Origin: Chloroflexota bacterium | GTDB lineage: Bacteria > Chloroflexota > UBA6077 > JACCZL01 | Direction of reading: 5' to 3' | NCBI GenBank assembly: GCA_030447245.1 | Contig: JAUJPG010000004.1 | Coordinates: forward strand, 16,843-80,842 | Length of the DNA stretch: 64,000 bases | In this document: one piece after another, positions 46,015 through 52,369 of the stretch | Layout of the letters: every line of letters begins with the position of its first letter | Numbering within the stretch: the first letter of the stretch is position 1 | Program-made: the position numbers and the translations under genes | The notes under the pieces: generated by a model | The model's input: the letters and a program-made list of their open reading frames with translations, nothing else | Told to the model about the DNA's origin: nothing | Database searches by the model: none

Positions 46015-47376
46015 ATGCGACTGACCACGCTCACCCGGGCCGCGCTTGCGGCGACGATCGTCCTCACGCTCGGCGGGCCGGCTCGTCCGGCACGGGCGGA
46101 CGAGTTCACCGTGACGCGCACCGACGACACCACCACCTGCACCCCCGGCGACTGCTCGCTGCGCGGGGCGATCATCGCCGCCAACACCTCGGCCGGACCG
46201 GACGTGATCTTGCTGCCGGCCGGCCTCTACATCCTGACGATCGGCGGCGCGGACGGCGGCGTCCTGGCCGCCAACGACGCCCAGAAAGGGGACCTCGACA
46301 TCGTCAATGGCTCCAGCATCACCATCGTCGGGGATGGCCCCGATACGACGATCATCGACGGCAATGGCGACATGACCCTCGATCGCGTCTTCGACATCGG
46401 CGCGGGCGGCAGGCTCCAGCTCGGGGGCGCGACGATCATGAACGGCCGCGCCGGAGTCGGCTTCCAGAGCCATGCCCACGGCGCCGGCATCCACAACCAC
46501 GGCTCGCTGATCCTGCAGAACGTCGTCATCAGCGACAACCGCGTCATGCTGACCGGCTGGGGCGGGGGCGGCATCACCAACGCGGACGCGCCCCAGAAGG
46601 CCTCGGCGTCGCTGAACAACGTCACCATCAGGGACAACGAGGCTCTCGAAGACACGGGCGGTGGCGCCATCGAGAACCTGAGCTTCCTGCAGCTCGAGAA
46701 CAGCACGCTGGCCAACAATCGAGCGCGCAATGGCGGCGGGATCGAGAACAAGGGAGTCAACGCCCTGGCCGGCCTGACCAACGTGACGATCAGCGATAAC
46801 CGCGCGGTCTCCAACGGGACCCCGACCACCGGCTTCGGCGGCGGTATCTCCAACCGAGACGGCGCGACCCTCTCCATGACCCACGTGACGCTGGCCGGCA
46901 ACAGCGCGGACACCCGCGGGGGTAACCTGGCGGCGCTGGACAAGGGCAAGTCCGTGACGCCCATCAACACGATCTTCGCCGACGGCAGCCCTGCCGATTG
47001 CTTCATCGAGGCGACCGGCGGCTACGTCTCCAACGGCACCAATCTCGCGACCGACGCCAACTGCAACCTGGCCGGCGCGGGCGACCGGCCGGGCGGCCAG
47101 GTGCAGCTCGGACCGTTGGCGGACAACGGCGGCCTGACCCCGACCCGCGCGCTGCTGCCGGCATTCCCTGACCACGGCAACGAAGCGATCGACGCCTGCA
47201 ACCCGGCGTCGTCGACGGACGCCGACCAGCGCGGCGAGCCCCGTCCCAGGGACGGCGACGGCGACGGCACGGCGATCTGTGACATGGGCGCCTACGAGAT
47301 GCAGCGCGCCGAACGCGGGCATGACAACGACAACGAGAACCACGACAACGACAACCATGACAACGACAACGACTAG
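46015..47376 (+). CDS. CSLREA-domain right-handed beta-helix surface protein (choice-of-anchor-type C-terminal region) with Asp/Asn-rich tail
   Basis: Signal peptide, CSLRGAIIAAN motif, repeated N.T....N beta-helix rungs, C-terminal DNGGLTPTRALLP...AIDACNP...DGDGDGTAICDMGAYE, tail HDNDNENHDNDNHDNDND. Confidence 0.7.
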   Translation: MRLTTLTRAALAATIVLTLGGPARPARADEFTVTRTDDTTTCTPGDCSLRGAIIAANTSAGPDVILLPAGLYILTIGGADGGVLAANDAQKGDLDIVNGSSITIVGDGPDTTIIDGNGDMTLDRVFDIGAGGRLQLGGATIMNGRAGVGFQSHAHGAGIHNHGSLILQNVVISDNRVMLTGWGGGGITNADAPQKASASLNNVTIRDNEALEDTGGGAIENLSFLQLENSTLANNRARNGGGIENKGVNALAGLTNVTISDNRAVSNGTPTTGFGGGISNRDGATLSMTHVTLAGNSADTRGGNLAALDKGKSVTPINTIFADGSPADCFIEATGGYVSNGTNLATDANCNLAGAGDRPGGQVQLGPLADNGGLTPTRALLPAFPDHGNEAIDACNPASSTDADQRGEPRPRDGDGDGTAICDMGAYEMQRAERGHDNDNENHDNDNHDNDND

Positions 47377-47423: not shown

Positions 47424-48197
47424 ATGGAGACCGAACATTCGATTGTGGCGCCAGGGCATGGGCGCGACCGATCGCGGTGGCTGCGCTGGACGGCGCTGCT
47501 GGGCCTGGTGGTCGCGCTGACCAGTCTGCCGGGCGTCGGCCTGGCGGATGACGACGAGAACAAGAAGAAGGACAAGCAGACCGCGAGCCTGCGAGAGTCC
47601 AGCCAACAGCAGACGATCGGACCAATCGACGACGCCGATCGGATCAGGATCCCTGACCTGACCGAGAAGCCGGGCCTGCCGCCGGACACGGTCGCCACCC
47701 CGGTCGACAACTTTGACGATCGGGTCAGGATCCCTGACCTGACCGAGAAGTCAGGTCTGCCGCCGGACACGGTCGCCACACCGATCGACCACGACCGGGT
47801 CGAGCAGATCGGCCAGCTGGTCGGCGAGAACACCTGGACGGACCGGGCCCCGATGCCCACCTCGCGCTTCGGGCTTGGGCTGGCGGCGGCGCAAAACGGG
47901 AAGCTCTACGCCGTCGGCGGCTACAACAACGGCGGCGCGCAGGCCACGGTCGAGGAGTACGACCCGGACCTCAACACCTGGAGGGCTCGGGTCCCGCTGC
48001 CCACCCCGCGCTCCGGGCTCGGGCTGGCGGTGGCGTCCAACGGCAGGCTCTACGCCGTCGGCGGCAACAACGGCAGCGCCTTTCTGGCCACGGTCGAGGA
48101 GTACGACCCGGCCACCAACACCTGGACGGCCCGGGCCCCACTGCCCACCGCGCGCTACGCGCTCGGGCTGGCGGCGGCGCAACCCTGCAAGCTCTAG
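47424..48197 (+). CDS. Kelch-repeat protein, truncated by an in-frame stop
   Basis: Signal/TM segment, two 27-aa tandem repeats RIPDLTEK.GLPPDTVATP, then Kelch blades (GKLYAVGG...EEYDP.TNTW); TAG at 48195 replaces the Tyr of the next LYAVGG. Confidence 0.6.
   Translation: METEHSIVAPGHGRDRSRWLRWTALLGLVVALTSLPGVGLADDDENKKKDKQTASLRESSQQQTIGPIDDADRIRIPDLTEKPGLPPDTVATPVDNFDDRVRIPDLTEKSGLPPDTVATPIDHDRVEQIGQLVGENTWTDRAPMPTSRFGLGLAAAQNGKLYAVGGYNNGGAQATVEEYDPDLNTWRARVPLPTPRSGLGLAVASNGRLYAVGGNNGSAFLATVEEYDPATNTWTARAPLPTARYALGLAAAQPCKL
47640..47795. repeat. near-identical tandem repeat (2 x about 78 bp) inside the Kelch gene
   Basis: cggatcaggatccctgacctgaccgagaag... repeated with a few substitutions. 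Confidence 0.7.
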
Positions 48198-48410
48198 GCC
48201 GTCGGCGGCGACATCGGCGGCGCGCAGGCCACGGTCGAGGAGTACGACCCGGCCACCAACACCTGGACGGCCCGGGCCCCGCTGCCCACCCCCCGCTCCA
48301 GCCTCGGGCTGGCGGCGGCGCCCAACGGCAAGCTGTACGCCGTCGGCCATCGGCGGCGCGCAGGCCACCATCGAGTACGACCCGAACGCCGACACCCTGG
48401 ACCGCTGAAC
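48198..48410 (+). pseudogene. degenerate continuation of the Kelch repeats after the premature stop
   Basis: AVGGDIGGAQATVEEYDPATNTWTARAPLPTPRSSLGLAAAPNGKLYAVG then frame loss. Confidence 0.5.
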
Positions 48411-49510: not shown

Positions 49511-50203
49511 GTGCGCCACCTGCAACGTGCCGGGCGGAGTTTCGACCCGGGCCTGCACACGCTGTCCCTCCGCCGGGCGGCCTTCAAGACGCTGAGACGC
49601 CACAGGGTCGAGGGCGATTGCTACATCGGGCACGAAATCGTCGACGAGGCGCAGAACCCGCCCTTTCCACTCATGGGCGGCACCGGAATATCAGTTCTGA
49701 GAGCCCCGATCTTAACTCGTGACTGTCAGACTAATGGTGTCTGGCACGCGGCGTTCAGGTTCAACCTGTCCGAAATCCGGGGGCGGTGGGCGGCCGGGCG
49801 GTTGTCCGTGCTCACCATGGAGCTGACATTCGAAGAGACTCCGTACCTCTCGTCCCTCGACGGCATCACTGGCAAGAGGGAGTTCATGATTAACCTCTGG
49901 CGTCCGCCCACCTTCGACTTTAGTCAGCACGCGCCGACCGAGACCTGCTGGCCGCGGCTGGCCCGTCCGACGGTCGACTGGAGCCGCACGGGCATCGTGG
50001 TCCCGAACGACGTCCTCCTTGAGGCGGGACAGATCGGCACCTTCCCGCTGCTGCATCAGATCGGCGATATGCTGCGCTACCCGGAGAACGACGGGCTCGG
50101 ATTCCTGATCCTCGGCCACAACGAGGAGATGCACTTCAACGACGCGGAGTGCGTCTCGAAGATCGACAACGTCACACTCAACGTGACCTACCACGTCCAC
50201 TAA
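49511..50203 (+). CDS. family-A paralogue (divergent, no obvious signal peptide in the called frame)
   Basis: AFRFNLSEIRG, ETCWPRLARPTVDWSRTG, GFLILGHNEEMHFNDAECVSKIDNVTLNVTYHVH align with the other family-A copies; may be fused to or frameshifted from the upstream CARDB ORF. Confidence 0.55.
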   Translation: MRHLQRAGRSFDPGLHTLSLRRAAFKTLRRHRVEGDCYIGHEIVDEAQNPPFPLMGGTGISVLRAPILTRDCQTNGVWHAAFRFNLSEIRGRWAAGRLSVLTMELTFEETPYLSSLDGITGKREFMINLWRPPTFDFSQHAPTETCWPRLARPTVDWSRTGIVVPNDVLLEAGQIGTFPLLHQIGDMLRYPENDGLGFLILGHNEEMHFNDAECVSKIDNVTLNVTYHVH

Positions 50204-50291: not shown

Positions 50292-51797
50292 ATGATGATG
50301 CAGGCATCCGAGGTGGAGTCACGGCCGTGGGCGACGGTGCCGGGGCCGCTCGACCGGGCGAGCTTCTTCGAGGAGCAGGCCCGGCATCGGCGGTCGACCT
50401 GGCGGCTGACGGCGCTCTGCCTGGCGGCGGTGGTGCTGATGGGGCTGGTGGTGAGCGTCGTCGTGACGCCGCTGCTGATGGCGCAGATCGGCATCACCCT
50501 CGCGGTGCTCGGAATCGTGCTGCCGGTCCCAGACGTTCTGAAGGCCATTCCGAACGGGTACGCCGATCTGATCGCCCCGATGATGCATCAGGATCAGCGT
50601 CCGGCGACCTTCGGACAGATCGTCGTCGGCTGGGCCTTGTTGCTCGGACCGGGCGTGGCGGTGATGCTCCTGATCTCGTTCTGGCTGTGGTCGCTCTTCC
50701 TGCGGGCCGGGGTTGGCGGCGCGCTGCTCGCGCTGGGGGCACGTGCGCCGCGGCCCGATGACCTCGAGGAGCAACAGCTCGTCAACGTCGTCGCCGAGAT
50801 GGCCATCGCGGCCGGGCTGCCGCCTCCCCAGGTCGTGCTGCTCGACTCGGACGTGCCGAACGTGGCGGTCATTGGCTCGGGGCCGGACGACGCGACCGTG
50901 GTCGTCTCGCGGCGACTGCTGGATGAGTTCGACCGGGACCAGACCCAGGCGGCGCTCGGCCACCTGATTGGCTCGATCGGCAATGGCGACCTACGCATCG
51001 CCTTTGCGATCGTGTCGGTGTACCAGACCTTTGGCCTGCTGATGACGCTGCTCGACGCGCCGTTCACTGGAGCCGCTCGCTCCACGATCGGCCGCACGCT
51101 GCGTTTCGCCCTGCGTCGACCGGACCGCGACGCGGCCGGCGAGGCCGAGCGGGTGACGGCGCTCTTCTCCCAGACGTTCACGTCGGCACGGCTCGACGAG
51201 ATCGGCAAGTTCCTGGAGCCCGATCCAGACACCTGGCTGGGTCGGCTCGACCAGCGCACCGTCATCTTCCGCGGGATTCGGATCGCCGTCTTGATGCCGC
51301 TGCTGTTTGCGAACCTGTTCAGCAAGATCGTCTTGCTGGTGTTGATGCCCCTTCTGGTTGGCCCGTTGATCGCGCTGGTCTGGCGATCACGCCGCTACCT
51401 GGCGGATTCCACGGCCGTCCAGCTCACCCGCAATCCCGACGGGATGGCCGCCGCGCTGGTCGAGCTGCTCCAAAAGGGCGGGCTGCCGCCCGGCAGCAAG
51501 TGGTCGGCCCACCTGTTCGTCGTGGGCACTGAGGTCGCCCGAGAACAGGCCCAGCGTACGCTGGCGGCGAAGCTGCGAGGGATCGGGGAGGCCAATGCCG
51601 GCAGACCGCTCTCTGAGCGCCTCACCGCGGGCGTCAGGATGGCCGGCGAGGCGATGCGCGGGGCGAATGAGGCCGAGGCGGCAGACGCGGGCACCTTTGC
51701 CGAAGAGAACTCGATTCTGCTGAACTTCCACCCGCCCCTGCGCAAGCGGCTCGAGCGGCTGCGACTCCAGGGCGCGACCATCAATCTGCACGCGTAA
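50292..51797 (+). CDS. M48/HtpX-like membrane protein lacking the HExxH zinc site
   Basis: TM helices; PNVAVIGSGPDDATVVVSRRLL aligns with HtpX NAFATG...VAVSTGLL, but the active-site position reads ALGHLIGSIGNGDL where HtpX has AHEISHIANGDM. Confidence 0.6.
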   Translation: MMMQASEVESRPWATVPGPLDRASFFEEQARHRRSTWRLTALCLAAVVLMGLVVSVVVTPLLMAQIGITLAVLGIVLPVPDVLKAIPNGYADLIAPMMHQDQRPATFGQIVVGWALLLGPGVAVMLLISFWLWSLFLRAGVGGALLALGARAPRPDDLEEQQLVNVVAEMAIAAGLPPPQVVLLDSDVPNVAVIGSGPDDATVVVSRRLLDEFDRDQTQAALGHLIGSIGNGDLRIAFAIVSVYQTFGLLMTLLDAPFTGAARSTIGRTLRFALRRPDRDAAGEAERVTALFSQTFTSARLDEIGKFLEPDPDTWLGRLDQRTVIFRGIRIAVLMPLLFANLFSKIVLLVLMPLLVGPLIALVWRSRRYLADSTAVQLTRNPDGMAAALVELLQKGGLPPGSKWSAHLFVVGTEVAREQAQRTLAAKLRGIGEANAGRPLSERLTAGVRMAGEAMRGANEAEAADAGTFAEENSILLNFHPPLRKRLERLRLQGATINLHA

Positions 51798-51811
51798 GGA
51801 GGGACCGACCG

Positions 51812-52369
51812 ATGGAGCTGTTGATCGTCCTGGCGGTGGTGGCGTTGCTGGCGTTCTACCTGGTGAGCGTCTACAACGGCCTGATCGGCAAGCGGAACCG
51901 GGTCAGGAACGCCTGGTCACAGATCGACGTGCAGCTGAAGCGTCGGCACGACCTGATCCCCAACCTCATCAACGCCGTCAAGGGCTATCTGGCTCACGAG
52001 CGGGGAGTGCTGGAGAGCGTCACTCGCGCCCGCGCGGAGGCGATCGCGGCCGGCAATGACGTCCCCGCGCGAGCGGCGGCAGAAGGCGAGCTGACCCGGA
52101 CGGTACGCTCGTTGTTCGCGGTGGCCGAAGCCTATCCGGATCTGAAGGGGAACCAGAACATGCTGGCCCTGCAGGAGGAGCTGAGCTCGACCGAGAACAG
52201 GGTCGCCTTCTCGCGCCAGCACTACAACGATTCGGTGATGGCGTACAACACCGCCCGTGAGACGCTTCCGGCCAGCCTCTTCGCCCCGGCGCTCGGCTTC
52301 GGTGCGGAGCCCCTGTTCACGCTCGAGGACCCAGTCGCCGAGCGCGGCGTGCCACAGGTGCAGTTCTAG
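51812..52369 (+). CDS. lemA: LemA family protein
   Basis: N-terminal TM helix and VYNGLIGKRNRVRNAWSQIDVQLKRRHDLIPNL signature. Confidence 0.85.
   Translation: MELLIVLAVVALLAFYLVSVYNGLIGKRNRVRNAWSQIDVQLKRRHDLIPNLINAVKGYLAHERGVLESVTRARAEAIAAGNDVPARAAAEGELTRTVRSLFAVAEAYPDLKGNQNMLALQEELSSTENRVAFSRQHYNDSVMAYNTARETLPASLFAPALGFGAEPLFTLEDPVAERGVPQVQF

Follow-up and report, generated by a model that had tools for sequence, protein, structure and literature searches.

The 64,000-nucleotide stretch of DNA analyzed here, referred to as the window, comes from a Chloroflexota bacterium (GenBank assembly GCA_030447245.1, contig JAUJPG010000004.1, positions 16,843 to 80,842 of the forward strand). Two adjacent genes in the window encode a homologue of the M48 membrane protease HtpX and a LemA protein (Table 1). 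Sequence comparisons strongly support the view that the M48 homologue is catalytically dead, a pseudopeptidase that is conserved under selection. The 501-amino acid protein matches the Pfam family Peptidase_M48 (PF01435) with an E-value of 2.6e-15 and a score of 57.2 bits (gathering cut-off 20.3), and the 185-amino acid protein matches LemA (PF04011) with an E-value of 1e-53 and 181.6 bits (cut-off 26.2). Residues 23-185 of the latter also match the Thermotoga LemA structure 2etd (E-value 2e-35). Among the NCBIfam models, the M48-like protein matches HtpX equivalogs only (PRK04897 and PRK05457 among them), and it scores far under the cut-offs of all eight, with a best score of 102.9 bits versus a cut-off of 355 (cut-offs span 245-422). 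By these equivalog cut-offs, the protein is outside HtpX proper. Neither a second M48 gene nor a second LemA gene is present within the 64-kb window.

Table 1. Features of the M48-like gene and lemA, in window coordinates (aa, amino acids; ORF, open reading frame; TM, transmembrane)
Feature	Position	Strand	Remarks
M48/HtpX-like pseudopeptidase gene	50292..51797	+	501-aa ORF; probable real start ATG 50298, giving 499 aa
Cytoplasmic N-terminal motif GPxDRxSFFxEQxRxRRxTW, before TM1	50343..50402	+	mean conservation 0.66
TM1 (aa 41-59), extracytoplasmic loop (60-109), TM2 (110-128)	50412..50675	+	hydropathy scan
Edge beta-strand N190-G195 (NVAVIG)	50859..50876	+	strand 191-194 in model
Former HExxH, now H224-L225-I226-G227-S228	50961..50975	+	alignments; codons checked
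N231-G232-D233, HtpX-type NGD motif kept	50982..50990	+	invariant in 59-sequence alignment A1
TM3 (236-254), cytoplasmic helical insert (~260-320), TM4 (324-364)	50997..51383	+	hydropathy, model helices
R365-S-R-R368-Y-L-A-D372, helix of the third zinc ligand in active M48	51384..51407	+	R367, A371, D372 invariant
H480-P-P-L-R-K-R486, HPx4R plug motif of M48	51729..51749	+	P481, R486 at least 90% conserved
Shine-Dalgarno AAGGAGG of lemA	51796..51802	+	overlaps M48 stop codon; read from sequence
lemA	51812..52369	+	185 aa; N-terminal TM helix (aa 3-21), then helical-bundle domain

Three consecutive ATG codons begin the M48-like reading frame. The third is likely the true start, because a nearby upstream GGGAG suits it best and because the NCBI record of the protein has 499 amino acids, matching a start at this codon. 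The frame is unbroken across 501 codons and ends with TAA at 51795-51797. The first-pass annotation had placed lemA 15 bp downstream; lemA does follow, but the intergenic spacer is 14 nt. The Shine-Dalgarno sequence of lemA ends 9 nt ahead of its ATG. No terminator-like site was found between the two genes, and no promoter-like or terminator-like site was found for the operon as a unit. Given the 14-nt gap, the strong ribosome-binding site and the lack of a terminator-like site in between, the natural inference is that the two genes would be co-transcribed as a two-gene operon.

The first-pass annotation described an M48/HtpX homologue in which the HExxH motif is replaced, so that the catalytic Glu and the second His are absent. 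Two alignments agree with this description. A phmmer search against the PDB sequences places the query segment LGHLIGSIGNGDL opposite LAHEVSHIANGDM of the Vibrio HtpX domain 3cqb, and the family profile, when compared with E. coli HtpX (NC_000913), places H224-L225-xx-S228 opposite H139-E140-xx-H143. The loss extends further, to the third zinc ligand: E222 of E. coli HtpX, located in the sequence SRHREFHAD, aligns with R368 in WRSRRYLAD (WRtRryLAD in the family profile). The annotation had also named two findings that would speak against an inactive protein, namely an intact HExxH elsewhere and substitutions unique to this sequence. Neither was found, as HExxH or an inverted motif is absent from the rest of the window protein and from its 120 best homologues, and the same replacements are conserved in 246 proteins.

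These counts refer to 246 relatives aligned to the family profile. At position 225, that of the catalytic Glu, Leu is present in 84% of the proteins and Glu in none. At position 228, that of the second zinc His, Ser is found in 85%, with Ala, Thr, Met or Gly in the remaining 15%, and His is never found. The first zinc His (position 224) is still His in 83%, with Asp, Tyr, Asn, Gln, Arg or Ala in the other 17%. Position 368, that of the third ligand, is Arg in 82%, Cys in 8% and Lys in 5%, so that these three residues together account for 95%. With the catalytic Glu (now L225) and two zinc ligands (now S228 and R368) replaced, the protein is not expected to work as a zinc peptidase. It is predicted to be unable to bind zinc in the canonical way, and to lack a general base.

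The plug motif near the C-terminus points in the same direction. In latent BepA, an HPx4R plug contributes a fourth zinc ligand, and an Asp-Arg pair acts as the latch of this plug (PMC13655028). His is the first residue of this motif in 72% of the dead-family members that have the motif, versus 23 of 23 proteins in the active sister clade. All four residues that would touch zinc have thus been lost or relaxed, a pattern expected of a protein that no longer holds the metal. The latch itself is kept, as its Pro, Arg and Asp are conserved across the clade (the Asp corresponds to D372).

Loss of catalysis has not been accompanied by loss of constraint. The two helices of the former metal site are the best conserved segments of the protein, with a mean top-residue frequency of 0.76 and 0.74, versus 0.47 overall, and the ex-active site therefore appears to be constrained for something besides catalysis. 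The NGD motif is almost invariant among the 246 proteins (Asn 94%, Gly 99%, Asp ~100%). It is largely common to the active clades as well, although G232 is mostly Leu in the short active clade described below. Positions 224 and 368 co-vary. Y224 is found with C368 in six of seven cases (Fisher p ~9e-7, uncorrected for phylogeny), and R224 is never found with R368, its partners being Gln, Gln, Cys or Glu instead (shared ancestry again uncorrected). This pattern would fit a single cationic side chain at the former metal position.

An AlphaFold2 model of the M48-like protein, based on a 59-sequence alignment, is confident (pLDDT 91.3, pTM 0.86) and has the gluzincin/M48 fold. Fold searches reached full-length M48 structures; a profile search of the PDB by sequence reached only a 107-residue HtpX fragment. 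The three-stranded sheet that includes edge strand 191-194 is kept in the model. The family consensus of this strand is NAAAxG versus NAFA(A/T)G in active M48 proteins, with N190 and G195 invariant. The hydropathy profile resembles that of E. coli HtpX, with peaks at 41-59, 110-128, 236-254 and 324-364, and the predicted membrane layout is that of HtpX, with two N-terminal transmembrane helices, a cytoplasmic domain and two more hydrophobic helices. The motif that precedes the first of these helices has the near-invariant residues G18, P19, R22, F25, Q29, R31, R33, R34 and W37. The N-terminus and the M48 domain are placed in the cytoplasm because zinc ribbons at the N-terminus of homologues are assumed to be cytoplasmic, and the LemA helical domain is placed there because a basic run follows its transmembrane helix (positive-inside rule). 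On these grounds we infer that the M48-like and LemA domains both face the cytoplasm. The zinc ribbons (CxxC...CxxC), together with Pro/Ala-rich linkers, precede GPxDRxSFF in some members of the dead clade (P0125, P0128, P0203, P0079, P0105). Many of the dead-clade homologues also have one or two extra C-terminal transmembrane helices, which are absent from the window protein.

The window protein belongs to a large group. An exhaustive profile search with an E-value threshold of 1e-30 found 1871 clusters (50%-identity representatives); the 150 that are listed all have at least 364 bits, and the dead clade comprises at least 150 clusters at 50% identity. The best database homologues of the query are 40-74% identical to it, and the nearest 63-74%. 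Relatives are present in 546 species-level genomes, and a genome scan returned 79 loci. The loci analyzed were 53 of the dead kind, 23 of an active long form and 7 of an active short form. Proteins of the dead kind have no HExxH and contain RxR(R/K/C/Q)xLAD. They are found in Chloroflexota, Acidobacteriota/Terriglobia, Gemmatimonadota, Verrucomicrobiota, Actinomycetota, Rokubacteria and some Proteobacteria. Among the cultured carriers, Skermanella stibiiresistens SB22 has an adjacent lemA, whereas Peristeroidobacter and Steroidobacter species have none. The dead clade is found in soil bacteria, and it is large, conserved and previously undescribed. Neither Pfam nor NCBIfam has a model of its own for this clade. 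In one Terriglobia metagenome-assembled genome (L034:4947-6898), the dead-M48 gene is split over three overlapping frames, with lemA still downstream, which represents a frameshifted copy or an assembly error.

A neighbor-joining tree with E. coli HtpX as the root groups the dead proteins in a single clade beside two active, LemA-linked clades, which are the nearest relatives of the dead clade. Active proteins of this kind are found in Proteobacteria, Planctomycetota, Verrucomicrobiota and Cyanobacteriota. The long form has ~650 amino acids with HEFSHILNGDM and RQRE(Y/F)LADA (for example Bradyrhizobium sp. Tv2a-2, locus L072, and Paraburkholderia, L067), and the short form has ~300 amino acids with HEMxH (for example Reyranella soli, L057). 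Unlike the dead clade, the active clades keep all catalytic residues together with the plug His. By comparison of consensus sequences, dead and active forms share FFxxQxxRRxT, NVVEEMAIAAG, NAxAAG, NGD, ADAxAVQ(F/L)TRNP and HPPLxxR, and a counterpart of the N-terminal motif, FFxxQxxARRxT, opens the active sister family. Most of the residues that are conserved in the dead clade are conserved in the active sister clades as well, namely E169, N190, G195, R215, NGD, R367, A371, D372, T379, R380 and P382. Besides the catalytic residues, the fixed differences between the dead and active proteins include Phe to Ala at position 192 in the edge strand and Met to Leu after NGD. In the active long form (loci L051-L083, for example L072:4626-6932 and L065:4992-7043), a C-terminal region of ~300 amino acids has no Pfam match.

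Linkage to lemA is not peculiar to the inactive proteins. In the active clades (long and short form together), lemA lies directly upstream in 27 of 28 assessable loci. In the dead clade, lemA is adjacent in 23 of 47 assessable loci, in 21 directly downstream as in the window, in one upstream and in one downstream of the frameshifted copy. An adjacent lemA always shares the strand with the M48 gene, in dead and active clades alike. Clustering of all flanking ORFs revealed no recurrent neighbor other than lemA; where lemA is missing, the neighbors were either genes specific to a lineage or shadow ORFs of lemA. In a table of an RNase-mutant transcriptome of Streptococcus pneumoniae, htpX (SPD_1138) and lemA (SPD_1139) have consecutive tags and fold changes of 2.04 and 2.08 (PMC8546594), so that an M48 gene is likewise found beside lemA in this species, although streptococcal HtpX is, by annotation, a canonical heat-shock protease. 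The pairing of LemA and M48 is probably old and general, and inherited from active proteases, and the linkage is therefore not itself a sign of inactivity. The first-pass annotation had taken the pairing as a pointer away from proteolysis, which cannot be upheld in view of the active relatives (HEFSH or HEMxH, REY/FLAD) with lemA upstream. The particular feature of the window is the inactivation and not the pairing with LemA.

The genes that flank the operon in the window are not conserved at related loci and provide no functional clue. Upstream of the operon are genes for a CARDB-like secreted protein and a 230-amino acid ORF, and a disrupted Kelch-repeat gene. The ORF (49511-50203, + strand) ends with an 88-nt gap to the operon, has no Pfam match and is not kept beside the family elsewhere. 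The secreted Kelch-repeat gene (47424-48410, + strand) is disrupted by an in-frame stop (48195-48197) at a consensus Tyr (KL*AVGG versus KLYAVGG); the repeats carry on in the same frame past the stop and change frame near 48330. It is either a pseudogene or the product of an assembly error. Further upstream (46015-47376, + strand), the N-terminus of a 453-amino acid protein resembles a signal peptide; this protein also has Gly/Asn-rich repeats and ends in a HDNDNENHDNDNHDNDND tail, and it has no Pfam match. Downstream, on the opposite strand, are genes for a molybdopterin-dependent protein of the aldehyde oxidase/xanthine dehydrogenase family (large-subunit domains) and then a zinc alcohol dehydrogenase. 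A role in anti-phage defence was also considered for the two operon proteins, and rejected as neither has a PADLOC match.

From the sequence comparisons, and by analogy, we consider it probable that the M48-like protein is a non-proteolytic, cytoplasm-facing partner of LemA in a LemA-linked branch of the M48 family, and that it binds polypeptide without cutting it. The protein keeps the HtpX layout, the edge strand with which M48 enzymes hold substrate and, in the plug motif, the Pro/Arg/Asp latch; it has lost the catalytic Glu and two zinc ligands, and the family as a whole no longer strictly requires H224 or H480. An arginine in the place of the zinc ion may hold the old active-site cleft, and this cleft could bind an extended polypeptide, or a segment of a partner protein, at the cytoplasmic face of the membrane without cleavage. 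Jointly with LemA, whose helical domain is predicted to be cytoplasmic, the dead M48 protein would contribute to the quality control of membrane proteins as a holdase, adaptor or gate without proteolytic activity, and would retain the non-catalytic half of the job of its active LemA-linked relatives. A precedent is BepA, in which binding to the M48 edge strand promotes assembly rather than degradation (PMC8423444, PMC13655028). The scaffold role that the first-pass annotation suggested is plausible along these lines, as a putative function.

Several observations weigh against this interpretation. LemA is not found within 5 kb in 24 of the 47 assessable dead loci, including those of Gemmatimonadota, Steroidobacter, Verrucomicrobiota and Actinomycetota, so that the dead protein might not depend on a linked LemA. 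The 246 proteins include no natural M48-LemA fusion that would have pointed to physical contact; their long N-terminal extensions are low-complexity sequence or zinc ribbons. The neighbor-joining tree was built from 124 shared columns and has no support values. Published statements on the topology of LemA disagree, and its function is unexplained in the literature (PMC3905215).

A wider proposal, which we make tentatively and with considerable doubt, is that LemA and M48 form an ancient two-part membrane machine with a non-proteolytic core job, such as capture, gating or handover of a polypeptide at the cytoplasmic face. In such a machine, the clade could drop catalysis if R368 (or R224, where position 368 is not basic) took over from the zinc ion in keeping the cleft and plug assembled. 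If this is true, the dead clade would be a natural separation-of-function allele, and could reveal what LemA proteins do. To our knowledge, LemA proteins have remained unexplained since 1996.

An unlikely but plausible alternative, which partly overlaps with the proposed role as a LemA partner, is that the protein regulates an active protease whose gene lies elsewhere in the genome (canonical HtpX, another M48 protein or FtsH), or acts as its decoy, through mixed oligomers or competition for substrate, with LemA merely an inherited neighbor. Pseudoenzymes commonly regulate their active relatives (PMC11266112; for FtsHi, PMC8197885), with iRhoms and FtsHi as parallels. The window protein keeps its substrate-binding elements, and half of the dead clade has no adjacent lemA. 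However, the other half keeps the linkage to lemA across phyla, no protease gene recurs beside the family, and the 64-kb window lacks a second M48 gene. An error of sequencing or assembly, or a decaying pseudogene, might be suspected from the metagenome-type look of the assembly and the disruption of the neighboring Kelch gene, but the 501-codon frame is intact, the model is confident and the same substitutions occur in 246 proteins of several phyla. Since the substitutions are conserved, an artefact of this kind can be excluded with near certainty.

The conservation of the former active site could also be taken to indicate a hydrolase with new chemistry, either a Ser228-His224(-Asp233) group or a metal site made of carboxylates from invariant Asp or Glu residues. 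H224, S228 and D233 are each at least 83% conserved, and they are part of the most constrained region. We regard such an activity as very unlikely, because H224 is replaced in 17% and S228 in 15% of the members, which a catalytic nucleophile would not tolerate. Moreover, the Leu at the position of the general base is hydrophobic, and the invariant acidic residues are common to active M48 clades, where they are non-catalytic. Hardly any likelihood attaches to a BlaR1-like transmembrane transducer of an extracytoplasmic signal, which would correspond to the sensor function of the first-pass annotation. The protein has no extracytoplasmic domain, and its single outside loop (residues 60-109) is short, at ~50 amino acids, and poorly conserved (0.28 versus 0.47 overall, the second least conserved segment measured), which makes an outside sensor unlikely. 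BlaR1 signalling depends on its zinc site, which is absent in the window protein, and no regulator gene recurs nearby.

M48 proteases (HtpX, BepA, Ste24/ZMPSTE24, OMA1) have a central place in the quality control of membrane proteins. Most enzyme families include pseudoenzymes, so that one in the M48 family will not astonish a specialist. Full-text literature searches brought up no publication on an M48 clade that is inactive or linked to LemA, and neither M48 nor HtpX is mentioned in a 2024 review of metallopeptidase pseudoenzymes (PMC11266112). Within this well-known protease family, the dead clade is a branch of pseudoenzymes, without prior description in the literature searched. Its conservation at the ex-active site indicates a part of the role of the M48 fold that is independent of hydrolysis, and the link to the widespread LemA family provides a handle on the function of both proteins. 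Database entries of dead-clade members are labeled "M48 family metalloprotease" or "Zn-dependent protease with chaperone function", and annotation pipelines should not pass protease activity on to this clade.

Among characterized proteins, E. coli HtpX, an M48B zinc protease for quality control at the cytoplasmic membrane, belongs to the same Pfam family and has the same order of hydrophobic segments. Both proteins have the NAxAxG edge strand, the xxxxxNGD helix, the RxxxAD helix and HPPLxxR. The window protein differs from E. coli HtpX in the residues of the zinc site, and has in addition a conserved N-terminal extension of 40 amino acids, an insert of ~60 amino acids between TM3 and TM4 and a helical hairpin at 413-465. 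BepA is soluble and periplasmic, carries TPR repeats and is fully catalytic, with a protease-independent role in promoting assembly. BepA remains an active enzyme, for which the non-proteolytic mode is one of its states, whereas the loss in the window protein is fixed. iRhom, Derlin and Dsc2 of the rhomboid family and FtsHi of the FtsH family are likewise membrane-embedded protease homologues without catalytic residues, retained to recognize clients or to serve within larger machines, although they have unrelated folds and function in eukaryotic or organellar settings.

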